The position numbers and the translations under genes are program-made. The notes under the pieces are model-generated. The model was not told where the DNA came from, made no database searches, and saw nothing but the letters and a program-made list of their open reading frames with translations. This document shows, piece by piece, positions 2,277 through 11,380 of a DNA stretch of 11,380 nt. Position 1 is the stretch's first letter, and every line of letters begins with the position of its first letter. The stretch is from Escherichia coli (GTDB lineage: Bacteria > Pseudomonadota > Gammaproteobacteria > Enterobacterales > Enterobacteriaceae): NCBI RefSeq assembly GCF_003334255.1, contig NZ_QOWU01000083.1, one strand, 5' to 3'.

Positions 2277-2630
2277 TTAATTTATTAGCTTCATCGCATT
2301 TTTTTTGGTCTCTTCATCACTTTTTTGCTCTTGTTGTGAAGAGGATTGAGTGACTATTGAAGAATTAAAATCGGCCATCTCTTTTGGAAATAGCGATCTC
2401 AATATATTCACGATATCTGAAAATGTGGTTTCTTTCGTCAGCAGCTCACATAAAAGGAAAGGGGTCCGGGGATCTTGTCTGTATAAGGCCAGACCTGCCG
2501 TCAGTGCGGCCCGGTTAAGGCGGCTTCGTTCCCCTTGCGGGATACTGTCCAGTGTATCACAAACAATTTTATCTGTTTGATTTACATCTGGATTTAGTTT
2601 GAAGGCAATGGTTCTGCGCTTGTCCATCAT
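2277..2630 (-). CDS. parR: ParR (StbB) centromere-binding adaptor protein of type II (actin-like) partition system
   Basis: 117-aa translation [54 protein letters not shown]... matches my recollection of plasmid R1 ParR. Lies immediately downstream of parM with a TAATG stop/start overlap, the known parMR operon arrangement. Confidence 0.9.
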   Translation of the reverse strand: MMDKRRTIAFKLNPDVNQTDKIVCDTLDSIPQGERSRLNRAALTAGLALYRQDPRTPFLLCELLTKETTFSDIVNILRSLFPKEMADFNSSIVTQSSSQQEQKSDEETKKNAMKLIN

Positions 2631-3592
2631 TAATTACCTATGAGATACATACCGTTAACTAAATCATATTGAGAGTTATTGGTTTTGAAAAAACGTTCAT
2701 CACGAATCTGTGTGTGTTTTTTTACTGCATCGCATATTAATTCTGCGCCACCGCCTATAACCATAACATGAGTATAACCAGAAAATTCATTGAGCGTATT
2801 TAATACACGTTGCTCAAGTTTACGAAGTGCTTCATTCATTGCTTCGGTGACTATTGATATTTTGTTCTCATCATTAATTCGTTGCTTCAGATAGTTATTA
2901 TCTTTTCTGTGAATGATTATATCGTCAGCAAGATAGCTACTTCCTTTTGTTCTCGCAAGAGAAAGGGCATCTTTTACTGCAGATGTAACCAGAGAGACAC
3001 CAAGAGATGAGTCTCCGTATATTTTACTGATCCCCGATAATTTCCCCATTACCTGAGAAATATCTAATGTGGTGCCCCCGAGATCTATAATTAATAAAGA
3101 ATCTAACTCATCCAGTTCTTGTAGAACTTCATAACCTGCCGGTATAGATTCAGGCATGACTTTTACATCTTTTATTGTGAATGTATCCCCGCCATTTAAT
3201 GTAATTTTTTTCCGGAAGTTTGCTTTCTTACGCTCAATATTTTCCGTATTGGGTTGGTTATTTCTGTCGTAATACTCTGTCAGAGGAAGTGTGCAAACAA
3301 TATCCACTTCGCTTACCGGCAGACCACTGGTCAGTAAGGCGTGATGCACTGCAACGACATTAACGTCGCTGTATTGCCATGCGATATTGGTTGTGACTAC
3401 AGCATCCGGGCTGATTGGATCAAATGAATACTGTTCGCCGTTCAGTGTGTAGTTAAAGACCTTTTTATCACCAAAAGAGACTGCCCACTCGCGTTTGAAG
3501 CTGTTCGGGCTAATGTGCTGTTTAATTGTTCCGTCGCTTTCCTGCCACTGTAGTTTGATGTTTGTTGAACCGTCATCAATGAATACCAACAT
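2630..3592 (-). CDS. parM: ParM (StbA) actin-like plasmid segregation ATPase
   Basis: 320-aa translation [22 protein letters not shown]...[14 protein letters not shown]...[11 protein letters not shown]... carries actin-fold phosphate-binding motifs (DDGSTN, DLGGTT, GGGA) and matches R1 ParM as I recall it. RBS AAGGAG lies upstream of the ATG at 3590-3592. Confidence 0.95.
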
Positions 3593-3607
3593 TTATAAAA
3601 CTCCTTA

Positions 3608-3772
3608 TGGTGTTTTTTTGGTGTGTGTTTGGGTATGTTTTGGGTTTTAAGTGGGTTTGTTTGTCAAGTTTACCCCATTTCAACCATCAATCAATGATTA
3701 TTTGTCTTGTTTTGGTGTTTTATTGGGTTGGGTATGGGTTGTTTTTGGGTTTTGTTTGGCGGGTAACAAAAG
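3608..3772 (-). promoter_or_regulatory. parC: parC centromere/promoter region: two blocks of about five 11-bp iterons flanking the parMR promoter
   Basis: 11-bp periodic T/G-rich repeats on the + strand (for example ttgggtatgtt, ttgggttttaa, gtgggtttgtt, then after a ~45-bp spacer ttgttttggtg, ttttattgggt, tgggtatgggt, tgtttttgggt, tttgtttggcg). The spacer, read on the minus strand, contains TTGATT-16 bp-TAAACT and TTGACA. Architecture matches established R1 parC (10 iterons around the promoter). Confidence 0.7.
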
Positions 3773-4108
3773 ATGTCGCCGGGCTCCTCTTTTTACTGCG
3801 CCGGCTGACGCGGCGCGGCAGGAACGCTGCCTGTGGTCAGTGTCCCGCGTCCGGCCGGGCACGGGACGGGCGCTTTTACCGCTCCCGGCTGGCGTTGGTG
3901 ACAGTGTACGCCAGCCCGTCGCCCTTTTCTGATGAACGCCCTTCAAGCCGCTTTCGCGGCATATCCTCGCCGTCAAAAAGACGACGGCTGCGGTATTCCA
4001 CGGTCGGCCTGACCCGTTACCGGACGCGGTGAACAGCCCACAGGCAGCGGGGAACGGGCACCACAGGGGTGCCCTCCCGGTGCCCTCTGTAAGAGAAGGA
4101 GTGCTGTT
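3773..4108 (+). promoter_or_regulatory. Long GC-rich untranslated leader upstream of the methyltransferase operon; candidate structured promoter/ssi-like element
   Basis: About 335 bp with no credible ORF (only overlapping R/P/G-rich frames on both strands). Shares the 13-mer TGAACAGCCCACA (4030-4042) with 8399-8411. Ends with RBS AAGGAG before ATG 4109. Confidence 0.3.
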
Positions 4109-4792
4109 ATGTCCCGTTTTATCCTGGGTGACTGCGTGCGTGTTATGGCCACGTTTCCGGGCAATGCTGTCGATTTCATCCTCACCGACCCGCCGTATCT
4201 CGTCGGTTTCCGTGACCGTTCCGGGCGCACCATCGCCGGCGATAAAACCGATGAATGGCTGCAACCAGCCTGTAATGAAATGTACCGCGTACTCAAAAAA
4301 GACGCGTTAATGGTGAGCTTCTATGGCTGGAACCGCGTCGATCGCTTTATGGCCGCCTGGAAAAATGCGGGATTCAGCGTTGTTGGTCACCTGGTCTTCA
4401 CCAAAAACTACACATCGAAGGCCGCATATGTGGGCTATCGCCACGAATGTGCCTACATCCTGGCAAAAGGCCGTCCACGTCTGCCACAAAACCCGCTGCC
4501 GGACGTGCTGGGCTGGAAATATTCGGGCAATCGCCATCACCCGACGGAAAAGCCCGTTACCAGCCTGCAACCGCTGATTGAGAGCTTCACACACCCGAAC
4601 GCAATTGTGCTGGACCCGTTTGCAGGCAGCGGCTCAACCTGCGTCGCCGCCCTCCAGTCCGGACGCCGGTATATCGGTATCGAGCTGCTTGAGCAGTATC
4701 ACCGTGCCGGGCAGCAACGCCTTGCCGCCGTGCAACGGGCCATGCAGCAGGGGGCCGCGAATGATGACTGGTTTATGCCGGAGGCTGCGTAA
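4109..4792 (+). CDS. Orphan DNA methyltransferase, N6-adenine/N4-cytosine beta class (PF01555-like)
   Basis: 227 aa. Motif IV DPPY near the N-terminus (LTDPPYLVG) and motif I near the C-terminus (VLDPFAGSGSTCVAA), the order typical of beta-class amino-methyltransferases. Good RBS AAGGAG before the ATG. No adjacent restriction endonuclease candidate. Confidence 0.85.
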   Translation: MSRFILGDCVRVMATFPGNAVDFILTDPPYLVGFRDRSGRTIAGDKTDEWLQPACNEMYRVLKKDALMVSFYGWNRVDRFMAAWKNAGFSVVGHLVFTKNYTSKAAYVGYRHECAYILAKGRPRLPQNPLPDVLGWKYSGNRHHPTEKPVTSLQPLIESFTHPNAIVLDPFAGSGSTCVAALQSGRRYIGIELLEQYHRAGQQRLAAVQRAMQQGAANDDWFMPEAA

Positions 4793-5027: not shown

Positions 5028-5462
5028 ATGTACGGAACATGCGAAACGCTATGCCGGGAGCTGGCAGTAAAGTATCCGGGAGACATGCCGCTGATGCTGG
5101 TTATCTGGTCCCCGGAAGAGATTCAGGCACTGGCTGACGGTATGGAAATTTCTCTGACCGGTCATGAAATCAGGACCGTCCTGGCACGCCTGGAGGACAT
5201 CCCGGAAGACCAGCGGATTGAGTCCGGTATTTCTTCCGCTGCGGTGATGGAGATTATCCGCAACGAGAGCGAAAACCGCCTGGTGACCGTCCCTGCTGAA
5301 CTGCTGGCGTCCCTGATTCAGACCGCTGAACAGGCATTGTGGAAACGTGAATGGGCCGCCCGGGATCATGGCCTCGCCGTCCCGGAATGCGTCACCCGCC
5401 GTCAGGAGGTGGTTAATCAGGCCCGCACCCTGCTGAAAAACAACACACACGAAAACGACTGA
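5028..5462 (+). CDS. Conserved plasmid protein of unknown function (144 aa; possibly DUF1380-like), paralog of 7179-7601
   Basis: RBS GAAGGAGACGAGAATG. Aligns by eye with the 7179-7601 product (MY.T...RE...SLT..E..TV..RL.D...RxVTVPA..L). The DUF name is recalled, not verified. Confidence 0.6.
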
Positions 5463-6289: not shown

Positions 6290-6706
6290 TGACGTTGGCG
6301 GGGTAAATCCCCGCCTTTTTCCTGCCGGTCCCCGGACAGAGCACAAAGGAAGTCGCCGCCGGCTCCGCTTTACCCGGCCATGCAGGGCATGGCCTTGTGG
6401 TTTTTCAGTTATGTGGCCTCAGCGTCGTGTGCGGGCTGTGCCGTGCCTCCATCTTAGCCGGGCTGGCAGGGATGCAAGGGTACGCTTCGCCGCTGCGGTC
6501 ACCCGGTCCCTCCTTCCCGTCTGCCGTGATTTTCCGGTCGTTCACCCGCTCAGATTTCGCGGTCTCACCCTCCAACTCCCGCCAGCCGTGTGCGTCAGGC
6601 TGCGGCTTCCCTTGCGCCCTGTGCATCCCCGCCTTATCGCCCGGCTTTTATGGAGGCACGGCACCGCCCGGTGTCGCGGAATATGTGAACAACGGAGGAA
6701 AACATC
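6290..6706 (+). promoter_or_regulatory. GC-rich about 415-bp untranslated region upstream of klcA; candidate structured promoter/ssi-like element
   Basis: No credible ORF (the 6129-6734 and 6397-6741 frames are R/C/W/P-rich and overlap). Ends with TGAACAACGGAGGAAAACATCATG (RBS GGAGGA before klcA ATG 6707). Confidence 0.3.
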
Positions 6707-7132
6707 ATGCAATATGCGAAACCTGTCACTCTGAACGTTGAAGAGTGCGACCGTCTCTCCTTTCTACCGTATCTGTTTGGCAACGATTTTCTGTATGCCG
6801 AGGCGTATGTGTACGCGCTGGCGCAAAAAATGATGCCGGAATATCAGGGAGGCTTCTGGCACTTCATCCGCCTGCCGGACGGTGGCGGTTACATGATGCC
6901 GGATGGCGACCGTTTCCACATGGTGAACGGTGCAAACTGGTTTGACCGTACCGTGAGTGCTGATGCCGCAGGCATCATTCTGACTTCCCTTGTGATTAAC
7001 CGCCAGTTGTGGCTGTACCACGACAGCGGGGATGCAGGACTGACCCAGCTTTACCGGATGCGCGATGCGCAGTTGTGGCGTCACATCGAATTTCACCCCG
7101 AATGCAACGCGATTTACGCGGCACTGGACTGA
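6707..7132 (+). CDS. klcA: KlcA/ArdB-family antirestriction protein
   Basis: 141 aa; ...[68 protein letters not shown]... matches my recollection of KlcA/ArdB (Antirestrict family) proteins on IncF/IncP/IncN plasmids. RBS GGAGGA 7 nt upstream. Confidence 0.85.
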
Positions 7133-7178: not shown

Positions 7179-7601
7179 ATGTACTGTACTGTTAAAGAAA
7201 TTATCCGCGAAGTGCTGAACACAGACGTGCCGGACAGTGAATGCGTTTTTGCCGTGGTGCTGACCCGTGGGGATGTGCGTCACATAGCCCAGGACTGGAG
7301 TCTGACAGACGATGAGCTGGAAACCGTCATGCAGCGACTGGACGATGCCTTTGCGCATGGTGCGGATGTCAGCATTGTTCACGACGTTGTTCGTGAGCTG
7401 ATGGAAGAAAAGCGCGCCAGCCGTCAGGTGACAGTTCCGGCGGTGATGCTGGAAAAAGTGATGGCGCTGGCAGGCAGTGAAATGAAGCGCCTGTATGCCG
7501 TCGGGAGCGAGAACGGGGGCGACGGTGACGCATTCGTCAGGGAAGAACGCGAAGCAATGGACGTTGTGTTACAGGCGCTGGACGGGGAGCACATGTCATG
7601 A
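7179..7601 (+). CDS. Conserved plasmid protein of unknown function (140 aa; possibly DUF1380-like), paralog of 5028-5462
   Basis: RBS AAAGGAGACGAGAACATG nearly identical to that of 5028. Sequence similarity to the 5028 product along the whole length, including the shared VTVPA motif. Confidence 0.6.
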   Translation: MYCTVKEIIREVLNTDVPDSECVFAVVLTRGDVRHIAQDWSLTDDELETVMQRLDDAFAHGADVSIVHDVVRELMEEKRASRQVTVPAVMLEKVMALAGSEMKRLYAVGSENGGDGDAFVREEREAMDVVLQALDGEHMS

Positions 7602-7789: not shown

Positions 7790-7957
7790 TACAGGGGCAG
7801 GCGGTGGAGGCCGCCTGTCAGCCCGCGCGAAAACCCCTGGCAGGCTGACGCCTGCCGGAAGGGAAGCGGGCCACGCTGGCGCGTCGCCCGTTACCCTTCC
7901 CGTCTGTGATGTGTCTGACTCAGGAGTGTTTCTTTCTTATGTTATGGAACTGTTCCT

Positions 7958-8058
7958 GATGTTGTTGTTCCTTTATCTACTGCTCTGATTCTGACTACTG
8001 CAGTGTTGTTCTGTCTGCCGGGCGCACCTTCGGCTCCCGGCTGCCTGGCGGCATCCGG
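7958..8058. repeat. Copy 1 of a repeated leading-region element (77-bp core with 1 mismatch to copy 2)
   Basis: Core 7982-8058 (GCTCTGATTCTGACTACTGCAGTGTTGTTCTGTCTGCCGGGCGCACCTTCGGCTCCCGGCTGCCTGGCGGCATCCGG) matches 11304-11380 with a single T/C difference. The upstream GATGTTGTTGTTCC (7958-7971) is also shared with 11247-11260. Confidence 0.6.
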
Positions 8059-8409
8059 TCGTCAGGCCCGACTCCGACAGGCAGCTGCTGGCGCACCTGC
8101 CAGTCTCCGCCGAACCCGCTGGCGCGGTTTCGGGCTGCCGCTACGGTCCGATGCGTGAAAACCCCTGGCTTGCAGCGACCGTTCCGGTCGCGCCGCCTCT
8201 GTCGCGCCGTGGCCTGCGCTCCCGGCATCCCGGCAAAAGGCCGCCGGGATGTAAGGGGCAACGCCGTTTCGCGCACGCGCTCTCCGTCGTTGCGGCGGGC
8301 CCCTGCTCATTGCCTGCCGGGTGCCACACACCCGTATGAGTCCCTGTCGCCGGGGGCTGATACAGCCACAACCTGCCGCACTGACTGTCCAGGGTAAATG
8401 AACAGCCCA

Positions 8410-8445
8410 CAAAATTTTTTACCCAAAACCCGGTAAAAAATTTTG
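8410..8445. repeat. Perfect 14-bp inverted repeat (CAAAATTTTTTACC / GGTAAAAAATTTTG) with 8-nt loop
   Basis: 8410-8423 and 8432-8445 are exact reverse complements; an AT-rich stem embedded in GC-rich DNA, immediately after the shared 13-mer TGAACAGCCCACA. Confidence 0.5.
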
Positions 8446-8729
8446 CGTTCTGCCCAGGACAGGTGCGTCAGGCCGTGGCAGTGATGCCCCTTGCGGCGAA
8501 GGTTCTCAAACGGGTGAAGTTCATACCACAGTGAATACAGCAGCAGGTTCCCGCGAAACGTCAAAACCGCGGCTCCCGAAACTCAACGGGTGATGTTCTT
8601 TAAAAATCAGGATTTATTTCAGGCTCCGGCAATACGCATTTATTTGTTCTGTCAGTCATCCGGCTGACAGGTAATGAGAACGCAGGAACAGAAGGAGGAA
8701 AACACCGGAAAGCGTCAGATGCAGATATG

Positions 8730-8753
8730 AAAAAAGCAGGTCAGGCACCTGCT
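8730..8753 (-). terminator. Terminator-like hairpin oriented for the minus strand (stem AGCAGGT/ACCTGCT, followed by T6 on the minus strand)
   Basis: On the + strand: AAAAAA-AGCAGGT-CAGGC-ACCTGCT. On the minus strand this is a 7-bp stem followed by TTTTTT. Located about 75 bp upstream of ATG 8827. Confidence 0.35.
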
Positions 8754-8826
8754 TAATCCACGCCGTAAGAATTGTGCGACCAATTTTGACGGCATTGTTA
8801 ACCAATTTGTCATAAGGAATCCATTT

Positions 8827-9057
8827 ATGACTGTAAGCATTGTTTCACCTTCCGCAGCGGCTGTAAAGCCCCGCCGTCATCCCCGTTTCAGACGCGAAGA
8901 CATCCCCACGCCGGAAATTGACCCCGTGTTGAAAGCCTTCGGGCGACACATAGCCCGGAGTTTTCACCGGGGGCGTGGTGTACACATCCCCGCCATGAAA
9001 AACACGGCTTTCGGGCAGGTGCTCCGCACACTCGAACTGAAACGCGCTTTTAACTGA
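8827..9057 (+). CDS. Hypothetical small basic protein (76 aa)
   Basis: ATG with AAGGA upstream; R/K/H-rich product; co-oriented and followed after 51 bp by the 453-aa gene. No recognisable family. Confidence 0.45.
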   Translation: MTVSIVSPSAAAVKPRRHPRFRREDIPTPEIDPVLKAFGRHIARSFHRGRGVHIPAMKNTAFGQVLRTLELKRAFN

Positions 9058-9065
9058 TGAGGTGA

Positions 9066-9085
9066 GCCGCCCCGCGAGGGGCGGC
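9066..9085. other. Intercistronic GC hairpin (GCCGCCCC-GCGA-GGGGCGGC) directly upstream of an RBS
   Basis: Same 8-bp stem sequence as the hairpin at 7142-7160; followed by AACAGACGGAAGGAGAACATTTTATG. Confidence 0.5.
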
Positions 9086-9108
9086 AACAGACGGAAGGAG
9101 AACATTTT

Positions 9109-10470
9109 ATGACATTAGCAGCAATCACCATGACCGCCCCGGAAGCCGCCAGCCCTGTGCAGATGTACCGCGCGACCTACTCACCGGATGACAACAAACT
9201 GCGCCTGTATGCCGTGTCACGTCTTGACCCGGAGACGTATAAAAAAGTGCATGATGCTGGTTTTCGCTGGGCACCAAAACAGGCGCTGTTTGTCGCGCCA
9301 GCCTGGACACCGGGCCGGGAAGACGTGCTCCTCTCACTTGCCGGAGAGATTGAGGATGAAGACAGCACGCTCGCTGAACGTCAGGAAGCACGGGCGGAGC
9401 GGTTTACCGGATACAGCGGAAAGCGGGCCAGTGAATCCGCACAGGCACTTGATGAAGTGGAAAGACTGGCCGCGATGATCCCGCCCGGTCAGCCCATTCT
9501 TGTGGGGCATCACAGCGAACGCCGCGCCCGTCGTGATGCGCAGCGTATTGAAAACGGCATGAAACGTGCCGTGATGCTCTTTGAACGTGCGGAATACTGG
9601 GAAGAGCGGGCGCGGTCGGCACTGCTTCACGCGAAGTATAAAGAACGTCCGGACGTTCGCTGGCGTCGTATCAAAAAAATCGAAGCTGATTTGCGCAAGG
9701 CTGAAAAGACCATCGCGCAGTCGCAGAAATATCTGACGATGTGGCGGGCTGAATCGCTGGATCTGAATATGGCAAAACTCATCAGCAGTCATGACCATAT
9801 CAGCGCCTGTTTCCCGCTGGATACGTATCCGCGCCCGGCAGAAAAAAGCCAGTATGAAGGGAGCCGGTCGTTATGGTCGGCCCTGGATGATGACATCATC
9901 ACCACGGAGCAGGCCCGCGAAATTGCGATCCGCTGTCATGAACGGCAGATTCAGCATCAGCAACGCTGGGTTAACCACTATCAGAACCGCCTGATCTATG
10001 AGCGTGCCATGCTGGACGAAAGCGGCGGCGTGGTTACCCGGACACAGGATTTTGAGCCGGGCGGACAGGTTTTCAGCCGGGGCGAGTGGCTGACCATCAT
10101 CCGCGTGAACAAAAGCAACGGGGCGGTGAGTTCAGTCACAACGCCGAATTACAGTTTTCTCGGGTACAGCGGCACGATGAAAGTGACGCCCGATCGCATC
10201 ACGGACTACAAAGCACCATCGGCAGAAGAGGCTGCCATCGCCAGCCAGGCCGCGAAGCGTCCGCCGGTAGTCAACTATCCGGGGGAAGGTTTCCGGGAAA
10301 TGACAAAGGCACAGTGGGCCGCCCTGCCCCGGGACTGTAAGGCCGTGCGCAGTGTGGCAGAAGCAGAAGACCACGGGGCATACCGCTACCGCCGCACAAT
10401 GGACAATAATTTCCGCCTGGTGAATGTGTATATCACCGACATGAAAATCACGGAAATCCCACAGAAATAA
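9109..10470 (+). CDS. Conserved plasmid protein of unknown function (453 aa; possibly the DUF3560 family, unverified)
   Basis: Strong RBS AAGGAGA; long ORF with GC-rich codon usage. Central region is highly charged (R/E/K-rich, probably helical). No catalytic motif recognised by eye. Confidence 0.7.
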   Translation: MTLAAITMTAPEAASPVQMYRATYSPDDNKLRLYAVSRLDPETYKKVHDAGFRWAPKQALFVAPAWTPGREDVLLSLAGEIEDEDSTLAERQEARAERFTGYSGKRASESAQALDEVERLAAMIPPGQPILVGHHSERRARRDAQRIENGMKRAVMLFERAEYWEERARSALLHAKYKERPDVRWRRIKKIEADLRKAEKTIAQSQKYLTMWRAESLDLNMAKLISSHDHISACFPLDTYPRPAEKSQYEGSRSLWSALDDDIITTEQAREIAIRCHERQIQHQQRWVNHYQNRLIYERAMLDESGGVVTRTQDFEPGGQVFSRGEWLTIIRVNKSNGAVSSVTTPNYSFLGYSGTMKVTPDRITDYKAPSAEEAAIASQAAKRPPVVNYPGEGFREMTKAQWAALPRDCKAVRSVAEAEDHGAYRYRRTMDNNFRLVNVYITDMKITEIPQK

Positions 10471-10475
10471 GGTAT

Positions 10476-10501
10476 ATCCCCCCGGGAAATCCCCGGGGGA
10501 T
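10476..10501. other. Intercistronic GC stem-loop (ATCCCCC...GGGGGAT) between the 453-aa gene and the downstream methyltransferase
   Basis: 10476-10482 ATCCCCC pairs with 10495-10501 GGGGGAT; the loop contains the palindrome CCCGGG. Followed by RBS GGAGA and ATG 10517. Confidence 0.45.
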
Positions 10502-10516
10502 GACGGAGATAATGAC

Positions 10517-11080
10517 ATGCACAGTCAGTTAAGAGAACGTATCCGGCTGATGCGCGCAAGGCTGGATAACGCCGCGCCGGTTGCTGAAATCCGGGCTGAA
10601 TCTCAGCTTTTTGTGACTCCTGCCCCGGTCTGTGATCGCCTGGTGACGCTGGCGGAAATCAGCAACCGTGATCACATTCTGGAACCCTCTGCCGGCACCG
10701 GGGCCATACTGCGGGCGATTCGGGATACCGCGCCGGAGGCCATGTGTGATGCGGTGGAGATTAACAGCGGGCTGGTCCGGTATCTGCGGGAAAATTTTAA
10801 CGGTGTCAGGGTACAGTGTGGCGACTTCATGGAATGGCAGCCGGTGCAGTATTACAGCCGGATCATTATGAATCCGCCGTTCAGTCACGGGCAGGATATC
10901 CGGCATATCCTGCGGGCTTTTTCCCTGTTGCGTCCGGGGGGCGTGCTGGTTGCCGTCTGTCTCAACGGGCCGCGCCAGCAGGAGAAGCTGTTACCGTTTT
11001 CTGACGTCCGCGAGGAGCTGCCGCGCGGCACGTTTGCTTATACCGATGTCCCGACGATGATTATTCGTTTGCGTGCCTGA
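10517..11080 (+). CDS. Small class I SAM-dependent methyltransferase with amino-methyltransferase NPPF motif (putative orphan DNA or RNA methyltransferase)
   Basis: 187 aa. Motif I-like LEPSAGTGAIL followed about 55 residues later by IMNPPFS (the (D/N)PP(F/Y) motif IV), i.e. a gamma-like order. Too short for a separate target-recognition domain. RBS GGAGA 7 nt upstream. Confidence 0.75.
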   Translation: MHSQLRERIRLMRARLDNAAPVAEIRAESQLFVTPAPVCDRLVTLAEISNRDHILEPSAGTGAILRAIRDTAPEAMCDAVEINSGLVRYLRENFNGVRVQCGDFMEWQPVQYYSRIIMNPPFSHGQDIRHILRAFSLLRPGGVLVAVCLNGPRQQEKLLPFSDVREELPRGTFAYTDVPTMIIRLRA

Positions 11081-11246
11081 TGACACAGGGCTGGCGGGAG
11101 GATAAATGCCCGTCTGTCCGCACCGGGAAAAGACCGCGCGCCGGTGGCGCTGAAAGGGGCCGCGCTCACGCGCCGCCCCTTTCATTACGCGGACGTTCTG
11201 ATGGGGGCTTCTGTCTTTTCAGACCTGTCATTTGTCTGTTACTGAT

Positions 11247-11380
11247 GATGTTGTTGTTCCTGCTACTGCTACTGCTACTGCTACTGCTCTTCTTTTTCCT
11301 GCCGCTCTGATTCTGACTACTGCAGTGTTGTCCTGTCTGCCGGGCGCACCTTCGGCTCCCGGCTGCCTGGCGGCATCCGG
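11247..11380. repeat. Copy 2 of the repeated leading-region element, truncated by the window end; contains a (TGCTAC)4-5 microsatellite insertion relative to copy 1
   Basis: 11304-11380 matches 7982-8058 (76/77). Between the shared GATGTTGTTGTTCC and the core there are tandem hexamers TGCTAC x4 plus TGCTC (11261-11289) that are absent from copy 1. Confidence 0.6.

Follow-up and report, generated by a model that had tools for sequence, protein, structure and literature searches.

Orphan methylases encoded in the leading regions of plasmids have been proposed to protect entering DNA (PMC11541004, PMC7736820). An example is M.EcoGIX of pESBL (Fomenkov et al. 2020, PMC7736820), a small enzyme of the beta class (N6_N4_Mtase) that consists of one protein. 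Methylases used by mobile elements at entry are also found in the DarB-type polyvalent modules (Iyer et al. 2017, PMC5512222), where an EcoKI/TaqI-like enzyme with a TP motif, NPP(F/Y) and no recognition domain invariably follows an N-terminal helical domain that is otherwise uncharacterised. Type I systems present a related arrangement in that a catalytic subunit without a recognition domain, HsdM, relies on a separate subunit, HsdS, which is built of globular domains and long antiparallel helices. As for the timing of expression, Frpo promoters are located in the F region just upstream of ssb (PMC11541004, PMC12672017), and transcription in the recipient before second-strand synthesis has been measured for other operons of F and of pESBL (PMC12672017).

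Here we describe a cassette within an 11,380-nt stretch of Escherichia coli DNA (the window, by which we mean the whole of the DNA analysed) in which a 453-aa protein is encoded directly upstream of a 187-aa predicted methyltransferase. Comparison with relatives suggests a two-part adenine-N6 DNA methyltransferase in which the 453-aa protein would be the N-terminal module, detached and non-catalytic, and the 187-aa enzyme the catalytic part. Like M.EcoGIX, a homologue of which also lies in the window (4109-4792), this enzyme is proposed to modify incoming DNA before restriction, but it is of the gamma (TaqI-like) class as predicted from its sequence, and it comes with an accessory module of 450 aa, for which no solved structural relative was found and to which it is fused in most relatives. 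It shares the DarB-type features named above, and giant proteins of that type are its best PHROG matches; however, its N-terminal partner consists of DUF3560 and flanking domains and not of LPD36, there is no SF2 helicase, the IncF parts are separate genes, and whereas DarB is injected, the cassette protein is proposed to be synthesised in the recipient. The likeness to HsdM and HsdS is an analogy only; the cassette has no restriction subunit, and comparisons of sequence and of structure revealed no similarity to HsdS.

Layout of the cassette and its repeats

The window is an IncF leading region that is 100% identical to pU302L and matches at least 5,000 plasmids; the 453-aa gene occurs in at least 5,000 sequenced plasmids from E. 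coli, Klebsiella, Salmonella and Shigella, among them conjugative IncF plasmids of clinical isolates. In pU302L the genes follow one another in a single orientation, in the order methylase, klcA, cassette, ssb, ParB-like, psiB and hok; in F, ssb, psiB and hok lie toward oriT. The features discussed below are these:

7965..8595, + strand: Frpo-type (class 1) single-strand promoter repeat, copy 1, about 630 bp, upstream of the cassette
8331..8516, - strand: long, imperfect hairpin at the core of the repeat, formed by the transferred (template) strand and with its apex at 8403-8452
8827..9057, + strand: gene for a 76-aa arginine-rich protein (ydbA in some records), an ATG ORF
9066..9085, + strand: GC hairpin 1, intercistronic, with a perfect 8-bp GC stem and a GCGA loop
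9095..9102, + strand: GGAAGGAG, the ribosome-binding site of the 453-aa gene, as seen in the sequence itself
9109..10470, + strand: gene for the 453-aa DUF3560 protein (Pfam PF12083), an ATG ORF
10476..10501, + strand: GC hairpin 2, intercistronic
10517..11080, + strand: gene for the 187-aa predicted gamma-class (M.TaqI/EcoKI-like) N6-adenine methyltransferase catalytic domain, from alignment to M.TaqI
11151..11184, + strand: GC hairpin after the methyltransferase gene (inverted repeat I14; fold z = -3.0)
11271..11380, + strand: start of Frpo-type repeat copy 2, the copy upstream of ssb, which runs off the window

An earlier note on this DNA had described a two-gene module, made of the 76-aa and 453-aa ORFs and bracketed by GC hairpins. 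Both ORFs, the strong ribosome-binding site and both hairpins are present where it placed them, and no ORF in the window is longer than the 453-aa one, the runner-up being ParM with 320 aa. The boundaries of the unit are different, however: three genes (76 aa, 453 aa and methyltransferase) form a cassette that lies between copies of the Frpo-type repeat. Likewise, the firmest partnership is not that of the 76-aa and 453-aa proteins but that of the 453-aa protein and the methyltransferase; by the named sources listed, the 76-aa gene is nearly confined to Enterobacteriaceae plasmids. The same arrangement is retained in diverged Klebsiella and Citrobacter plasmids. The F plasmid is without the cassette, which has repeat copies on both sides.

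All three ORFs are real genes. Against their Klebsiella and Citrobacter plasmid orthologues (dS roughly 0.5-2), all are under purifying selection, with dN/dS values of 0.12-0.24 (76-aa gene), 0.09-0.17 (453-aa gene) and 0.20-0.28 (methyltransferase gene). The ribosome-binding site GGAAGGAG sits 7 nt 5′ of the ATG of the 453-aa gene and is conserved at loci L012 and L013. A further ORF at 11080-11310, a RefSeq hypothetical, was not accepted as a gene because diverged plasmids carry stop codons in all of its frames, and Rfam and tRNA scans returned no RNA genes in the window.

The repeat upstream of the cassette is a homologue of the Frpo region. Positions 8159-8586 share 94% identity with the part of F that lies just before ssb and 84% with a second F copy, and pU302L holds three copies (upstream of the cassette, upstream of ssb and after hok) that are 92-99% identical. 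Within the window the repeat is seen as a direct repeat of 7949-8058 and 11271-11380 (88% identical, up to 98.7% over 77 nt), of which the second copy extends in pU302L as far as ssb. Folded as single-stranded DNA, the minus strand of 7960-8600 reaches -177.7 kcal/mol (z = -7.9, 0 of 20 shuffles as good), and copy 1 contains the inverted repeat I4 (8403-8423 / 8432-8452). A scan of the + strand 5′ of the cassette gave no convincing double-strand sigma-70 consensus, and inspection by eye did not place -35 and -10 hexamers within the promoter hairpin. The position of the cassette is that of a leading-region operon: it precedes ssb, psiB and hok, its orientation allows it to be read from the T-strand, and an Frpo homologue lies 5′ to it. 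This is also how the Frpo/ssi class 1 operons of F and ColIb-P9 (ssb, psiB) are built, with the repeat followed by genes in the same orientation; the difference is that the cassette copy precedes genes absent from F, and its putative promoter is known from sequence homology.

Each of the three cistrons has a hairpin 3′ of it. Hairpin 1, folded with 56 nt of context, reaches -21.3 kcal/mol (z = -3.85, equalled by 0 of 200 shuffles), occurs as a motif once in the window, and lies in 34 nt, TGATGAGGTGAGCCGCCCCGCGAGGGGCGGCAAC, that are 100% identical across three plasmid lineages in which dS of the flanking genes is roughly 0.5-2. The fold of hairpin 2 is weaker (-21.0 kcal/mol, z = -2.36, equalled by 5 of 200 shuffles). 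At its position the sequence is different in the Klebsiella and Citrobacter plasmids but forms a GC hairpin there too, which means that compensatory changes have preserved the structure; the same is true of the hairpin at 11151-11184 in L012 and L013. The sequences 3′ of the first two stems are AACAGACGG and GACGGAGAT. Because no T-run follows either stem, these are not canonical intrinsic terminators, and neither was returned by a scan for Rho-independent terminators.

The DUF3560 protein

The 453-aa protein belongs to Pfam DUF3560 (PF12083), which matches residues 89-206 (E = 1.1e-36, 119 of 124 model positions) and is matched in all 86 of 86 aligned homologues; no other Pfam family matches the protein at E up to 10. 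NCBIfam and PADLOC gave no match and PHROGs only families of unknown function. The statement that the protein holds no nuclease, ATPase or methyltransferase motif agrees with these searches, as no such family was matched in Pfam, NCBIfam or PADLOC, and the same three libraries gave no match to anti-restriction or anti-CRISPR families (ArdA, ArdB/KlcA, ArdC, Acr). The family itself has been catalogued: Samuel et al. 2024 list it as uncharacterised family 28, the 28th largest of the families enriched in plasmid leading regions, in T-strand orientation (strand 1) at a median position 12 ORFs from oriT, and with no match to their anti-restriction and anti-CRISPR sets. Essentially no full-length homologues occur in the GenBank phage collection, where we found one partial match. 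Lack of expression, which the earlier note had said would speak against its proposal, is not what is seen: proteomics detected the orthologue encoded by pO157, whose transcript rises 5.1-fold after ciprofloxacin (PMC11125564).

Structure prediction gave a confident AlphaFold2 model (pLDDT 93.2, pTM 0.79), in which an acidic domain at the N terminus is followed by long helices that form a basic bundle and by a KOW/SH3-like barrel. The charged central region had been expected to form long helices, and three are predicted there (88-122, 136-178 and 181-212), with 28 K+R against 19 D+E and a pI of 10.2. The best structural neighbours of the C-terminal barrel are Spt5/NusG KOW domains, ribosomal proteins and UvrD/PcrA Tudor domains. 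A SAM-binding Rossmann-like fold or its motifs are absent from the model, which consists of long helices and small alpha/beta and beta domains, and the search found no solved relative and no catalytic motif. A PDB profile search with the full family profile matched only the part that is a fused methyltransferase, and the C-terminal region of the family alone had no match there. An internal duplication, N-terminal domain against C-terminal subdomains, was considered and rejected (hhalign probabilities of 2% or less).

Many UniProt entries of the family are named 'Hydrolase' or 'HD superfamily hydrolase', and the protein has a nearly invariant G133-H134-H135-S136 in a loop between two long helices, so one could read the conserved GHHSE motif as the active site of a hydrolase. 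HD domains, however, are defined by an H...HD...D pattern that forms a metal site, and the GHHSE motif is without it. Searches of Pfam, NCBIfam and PHROGs matched neither an HD nor another hydrolase family, even with permissive cut-offs, and no hydrolase is among the structural neighbours of the model. We consider a hydrolase very improbable.

The small ORF that precedes the 453-aa gene is arginine-rich, as had been noticed (11 R and 4 K, pI 11.9). Its product has 225 homologue clusters and a nearly invariant C-terminal half, and the named sources among the homologues listed are Enterobacterales, nearly all of them Enterobacteriaceae. Small genes upstream of distant fused homologues of the 453-aa protein are unrelated to the 76-aa protein and to one another. 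The 76-aa protein has a weak, partial Pfam match to HU-CCDC81_euk_1 (residues 24-62 against model positions 17-55 of 89, E = 5e-4), found at E <= 1e-3 in 19 of 25 homologues; NCBIfam, PADLOC and PHROGs gave no match. The idea that it is HU-like gained no further support from a profile comparison with E. coli HupA (probability 0.3%). It is possibly an enterobacterial accessory that binds DNA.

The methyltransferase and its fused relatives

The gene directly downstream (10517-11080) had been called a methyltransferase, and its product is a class I SAM methyltransferase. Among PDB sequences only M.TaqI chains match it at E < 1e-3 (E = 2.5e-6), and alignment to M.TaqI residues 22-122 pairs vTPapv with eTPpev, LEPSAGTG with LEPACAHG and NPPF with NPPY. 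The protein thus has what marks the gamma (EcoKI/TaqI-like) class: an N-terminal helix capped with a TP motif, the SAM-binding motif I (FxGxG-like) and, beyond it, the catalytic NPP(Y/F). It also matches PHROG 'DNA methyltransferase' families, giant multidomain proteins and PADLOC mad2. A target-recognition domain is absent, as nothing aligns past residue 164 of the 421-aa M.TaqI and the 187 aa, which end after the catalytic domain, leave no room for one. From these motifs we infer that the enzyme is a DNA N6-adenine methyltransferase.

Weaker similarity to rRNA and protein methyltransferases counts against this assignment. If it were the informative signal, the pair might methylate host rRNA, tRNA or protein after entry and so reprogramme the host, with the KOW/Tudor-like barrel docking on the ribosome or RNA polymerase. 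The neighbours of the barrel given above would fit such a role, and the methyltransferase does match Erm/KsgA, HemK and Pfam 'MTS', but at weaker scores. We think this improbable.

The new evidence on the role of the 453-aa protein comes from its relatives. Among the 150 best cluster representatives, 100 contain a domain 35-49% identical to the neighbouring methyltransferase, and this is the identity of the 187-aa protein to the C-terminal domain of fused homologues. When diverged full-length relatives are considered, a methyltransferase homologue is fused to the 450-aa module in 83 of 110 (75%), always at the C-terminus, and Pfam confirms the methyltransferase domains of the fused proteins. 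With fusion this frequent, the IncF genes are best read as a split version of one protein. The same split is present in an unrelated lineage (L010), where the methyltransferase gene overlaps the DUF3560 stop codon, and in another lineage (L008/L009) methyltransferase fragments lie downstream. The earlier note had linked the 453-aa protein to the methyltransferase, either acting together with modification or as an alternative to it; the first part is strongly supported by the fusions and the second has no support.

Several observations fit less well, and they define the main rival explanation, in which the DUF3560 module is an independent anti-defence or establishment factor with an activity of its own (for example, binding or blocking a host nuclease, or binding entering single-stranded DNA, the replication machinery or the transcription machinery) and is joined to the methyltransferase through co-deployment alone. 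Domains deployed together by phages and conjugative elements are the logic of polyvalent proteins (PMC5512222). The gap between the two parts in fusions is long (median 59 residues) with a proline-rich consensus, and looks like a flexible tether of the kind that joins independent functions in polyvalent proteins. The other 27 of the 110 full-length relatives, about 25%, have no fused methyltransferase, and in one of them (L011) a PAPS-reductase-family gene follows the DUF3560 gene instead. At L014 and L015 one gene of the pair is kept and the other is frameshifted; in L014 it is the DUF3560 gene that is intact, next to a frameshifted methyltransferase gene. Both the unfused relatives and these frameshifts count against a split methylase. 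The stronger constraint on the DUF3560 gene than on the methyltransferase gene (dN/dS ranges above) also favours a function of its own, as does the LPD29 polyvalent-protein domain, which occurs in 1 of 86 relatives and is encoded by a gene near another locus. Most relatives consist of the two parts alone, and a few are 800-1,450 aa long. Against independence, the domain order is fixed and the single partner is the same in 75% of relatives, whereas polyvalent proteins typically have varied partners; the module has no catalytic motif and matches no known anti-restriction or anti-CRISPR family, here or in Samuel et al.; and the methyltransferase is without any DNA-recognition domain of its own. 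We regard the independent factor as possible though somewhat unlikely.

A proposed role in plasmid entry

Taken with these alternatives, the reading that we prefer, and to which we give about an even chance, sees the 453-aa protein as the partner that provides DNA binding or targeting for a protective methylase expressed early. We propose that, as the transferred strand enters the recipient, host RNA polymerase would initiate at the folded Frpo-type promoter of the cassette on the incoming single strand, and that transcription would cover the 76-aa, 453-aa and methyltransferase genes, with the GC hairpin 3′ of each cistron punctuating or stabilising the transcript. The DUF3560 protein would associate with the methyltransferase, and its basic long-helix bundle and KOW/SH3-like barrel may supply nucleic-acid binding or targeting; the 76-aa small basic protein may be an accessory. 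Early adenine methylation of the plasmid would then allow it to escape the recipient's restriction enzymes.

A bolder version, which we rate as rather unlikely, is that the DUF3560 module is a previously unrecognised targeting subunit that loads a methyltransferase without a recognition domain onto the entering strand, or onto the machinery that makes it duplex or transcribes it. One loading route would be the KOW/Tudor-like barrel, which elsewhere contacts RNA polymerase or ribosomes, and the hairpin at 9066-9085, which is strictly conserved, could serve as a site of recognition or regulation and not as a passive stabiliser of RNA. Were this so, the result would be a sequence-relaxed 'blanket' methylation of newly arrived plasmid DNA.

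The DUF3560 family was already known from leading regions; what is new is its fusion to a methyltransferase in relatives, as seen in their sequences. With the protein read as probably half of a split methyltransferase, a formerly anonymous ORF yields a testable hypothesis on how resistance plasmids avoid being restricted when they arrive, and this reading would explain how a methylase without a recognition domain could work. The naturally fused and split pairs are useful for biochemical study, and should the accessory module turn out to be a new means of targeting DNA, it would widen the range of methyltransferase architectures.

Setting and boundaries of a three-gene cassette

Sequence 100% identical to that around the cassette occurs in Salmonella plasmid pU302L and in many E. 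coli plasmids. In a plasmid collection of 72,556 records, at least 5,000 match it, mostly conjugative IncF plasmids from Escherichia, Klebsiella, Salmonella and Shigella. One strand of pU302L carries, in order, a DNA methylase, small ORFs and DUF1380 genes, the antirestriction gene klcA/ardB, a further DUF1380 gene, the 76-aa ORF, DUF3560, a class I SAM methyltransferase, ssb, DUF905, a ParB-like gene, psiB and hok. These genes belong to the IncF leading region, which arrives first in the recipient and whose genes are oriented such that the transferred strand serves as template (PMC11541004, PMC7736820). An earlier note had described an uncharacterised two-gene module between GC hairpins, upstream of a methyltransferase; both ORFs, the ribosome-binding site GGAAGGAG and both hairpins lie where it had placed them.

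Features of the cassette and its borders
7965-8595, promoter repeat copy 1 (~630 bp), one of three pU302L copies
8827-9057 (+), 76-aa gene
9066-9085, hairpin 1
9109-10470 (+), 453-aa DUF3560 gene
10476-10501, hairpin 2
10517-11080 (+), 187-aa methyltransferase gene
11151-11184, hairpin after the methyltransferase gene
11271 (start), second copy of the promoter repeat

About 1 kb of non-coding DNA lies upstream of the 76-aa gene and includes repeat copy 1; the remaining two pU302L copies are found upstream of ssb and after hok. Window positions 8159-8586 share 94% identity with the stretch of the F plasmid that directly precedes ssb and 84% with a second F copy; the Frpo (class 1) single-strand promoters have been mapped to these places (PMC11541004, PMC12672017). 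The transferred strand of the copy 1 region folds as a long imperfect hairpin (centre 8403-8452, z = -7.9). Because repeat copies flank the three genes on both sides and the DNA between them is wholly missing from the F plasmid, the genes make up an optional cassette enclosed by promoter repeats; recombination between the repeats probably brought it in or removed it. The same repeat-cassette-repeat layout is kept in diverged plasmids.

A Klebsiella and a Citrobacter plasmid (L012 and L013) retain all three genes, whose proteins are 60-80% identical to those of the window. Comparison with them puts dN/dS at 0.09-0.17 in the 453-aa gene, 0.12-0.24 in the 76-aa gene and 0.20-0.28 in the methyltransferase gene (dS roughly 0.5-2), so each of the three is a genuine gene under constraint. 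In pO157, the orthologue of the 453-aa protein has been seen by proteomics, and its transcript rises 5.1-fold after ciprofloxacin together with the remaining leading region (PMC11125564). A 76-aa ORF at 11080-11310, overlapping the methyltransferase stop codon and annotated by RefSeq as a hypothetical protein, is probably not a gene: it is of low complexity, overlaps the hairpin and promoter repeat, and has stops in all frames in diverged plasmids. The Klebsiella and Citrobacter plasmids have a 75-aa ORF after the promoter repeat and ahead of the 76-aa gene (window 8590-8760); in the window its start codon is gone, alignment gaps total roughly 105 bp, and only its 3' end and trailing hairpin (8734-8754) are left.

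The 76-aa protein itself is real, small and very basic. It has 225 homologue clusters, whose named sources are all Enterobacterales and nearly all Enterobacteriaceae, and its C-terminal half is close to invariant. It is possibly DNA-binding; it partially and weakly matches an HU-type Pfam family, a likeness that was not confirmed when its profile was compared with E. coli HU (HupA).

The window carries several further elements. A ParM/ParR partition operon (2277-3592 (-); 320 and 117 aa) is followed, after parR, by a perfect 19-nt inverted repeat (2220-2266), and just upstream of it T/G-rich direct repeats with 11-bp spacing (3605-3753) look like a parC centromere. A 227-aa DNA methylase (4109-4792; NCBIfam PRK13699, E = 2e-150) belongs to the family of ssDNA-specific M.EcoGIX, so that, with the cassette methyltransferase, the window carries two unrelated orphan methylases. 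Ahead of it, a long inverted repeat (3825-3854 / 4020-4049, within 3810-4065; template-strand fold z = -5.0) fits the 'class 3' single-strand promoter of PMC12672017. Upstream of klcA/ardB (6707-7132), an inverted repeat with 32-nt arms (6432-6463 / 6639-6670, within 6420-6685; ssDNA fold z = -6.5) fits a 'class 2' single-strand promoter. Two DUF1380 paralogues, one after the methylase operon (5028-5462, 144 aa) and the other after klcA (7179-7601, 140 aa), match one PHROG family of unknown function.

The DUF3560 protein and the methyltransferase

The sole match of the 453-aa protein is Pfam DUF3560 (residues 89-206, E = 1.1e-36). No enzyme family was matched in Pfam, NCBIfam or PADLOC, and a hydrolase function for this protein seems highly improbable. 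A search over 1.84 billion cluster representatives returned 3,881 homologues, 692 of them at an E of 1e-30 or better. The best matches are mostly 640-700 aa long and align with the query over their own first ~450 residues alone; by BLASTP, 100 of the best 150 listed homologues carry a C-terminal domain 35-49% identical to the 187-aa methyltransferase of the window. Among 110 diverged full-length relatives the methyltransferase domain is fused in 83 (75%), in every case C-terminally and after a median gap of 59 residues, and Pfam finds these domains independently. This prevalent fusion suggests that the two IncF genes (9109-10470 and 10517-11080) are the fission product of a usually single polypeptide, of which the 76-aa protein is not part. 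The split recurs in a phage-like contig (L010), where the methyltransferase gene begins in overlap with the stop codon of DUF3560, and in one metagenomic lineage (L008/L009) methyltransferase fragments lie downstream of the DUF3560 gene. Fused forms are located in gene arrays of prophage-like or mobile-element type, in one case within a Bradyrhizobium genome.

In the L008/L009 lineage, the N-terminal fragment of the broken methyltransferase is on the same strand as DUF3560 and the C-terminal part on the opposite one (L008 6460-6699; L009 4581-4856 and 5044-5424 (-)), as if a segment had been inverted. Single genes are broken in individual plasmids (L014 2213-2776; L015 1503-2821): a frameshifted methyltransferase adjoins an intact DUF3560 gene in CP090266, and E. 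albertii pEA04.3 shows the reverse, with DUF3560 broken and the adjoining methyltransferase intact. At L011 (5001-7237), in an IncP-like context of KorA, ParB and ParA-type genes, a stand-alone DUF3560 gene is followed 18 bp on by a PAPS-reductase-family (PP-loop) gene in place of the methyltransferase, a hint that DUF3560 might also partner other enzymes that modify DNA.

Compared with solved structures, the 187-aa protein significantly matches only M.TaqI chains (E = 2.5e-6), and the family profile is likewise best on M.TaqI (E = 8e-9). Its TP motif, LEPSAGTG and NPPF align with the corresponding M.TaqI motifs and are characteristic of EcoKI/TaqI-like adenine-N6 DNA methylases, as described by Iyer et al. 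in DarB-type polyvalent proteins (PMC5512222). Its best PHROG matches are families with the annotation DNA methyltransferase and giant proteins of many domains. RNA or protein as its target is unlikely. The 187-aa protein has no target-recognition domain. An AlphaFold2 model of the 453-aa protein (86 sequences) is confident (pLDDT 93.2, pTM 0.79) and comprises an alpha/beta domain (residues 20-85; segment 1-88 has a pI of 4.8), the DUF3560 domain (pI 10.2) as three helices, each 32-43 residues long, a small alpha/beta element, a further long helix and a beta-rich C-terminal region (pI 9.3).

On the most economical reading, the 453-aa and 187-aa proteins work together as the two subunits of an adenine DNA methyltransferase that would be synthesised from the entering strand; the 453-aa protein would supply the DNA binding or targeting missing from the catalytic domain, and the outcome would be protection from restriction. 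Our confidence in this reading is only middling, because the fusion linker is long, about a quarter of relatives are without the methyltransferase, and mobile elements do combine independent functions in one protein. The main rival, that the DUF3560 protein is an independent anti-defence factor merely co-deployed with the methyltransferase, is a good deal less probable, although it outranks the RNA- or protein-target and hydrolase readings.

Hairpins after each cistron

Every cistron of the cassette is followed by a GC hairpin. Hairpin 1 has a perfect 8-bp GC stem and a GCGA loop (z = -3.85), and hairpin 2 folds less strongly (z = -2.36); as no T-run follows either stem, these are not terminators of the classical type. 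Against L012 and L013, hairpin 1 and its flanks (34 nt) are 100% conserved, with synonymous changes saturated in neighbouring codons. In hairpin 2, the hairpin after the methyltransferase gene and that trailing the largely deleted 75-aa ORF, sequence varies between lineages and pairing is kept. The hairpins are functional structures that most likely protect RNA 3' ends, or serve as processing sites, in an early transcript spanning several cistrons; alternatively, they may act on single-stranded DNA. Each of the three plasmid lineages also has a 16-codon frame (9062-9112) that opens with a GTG where the conserved hairpin 1 region begins and whose TGA stop overlaps the start codon of the 453-aa gene (ATGA). 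The frame lacks a convincing ribosome-binding site and may be a coincidence.

A prevalent gene family

Samuel et al. listed this family as number 28 among leading-region-enriched families, with 1,913 members, and annotated it from a structural match as 'Uncharacterized; DUF3560; Methyltransferase domain protein', offering no interpretation. Klebsiella CRISPR arrays hold spacers against the DUF3560 gene and its neighbours (PMC6965323). We found no paper assigning it a function; the gene is therefore known, prevalent and unexplained, and the split-methyltransferase relationship supplies a concrete, testable mechanism for it.
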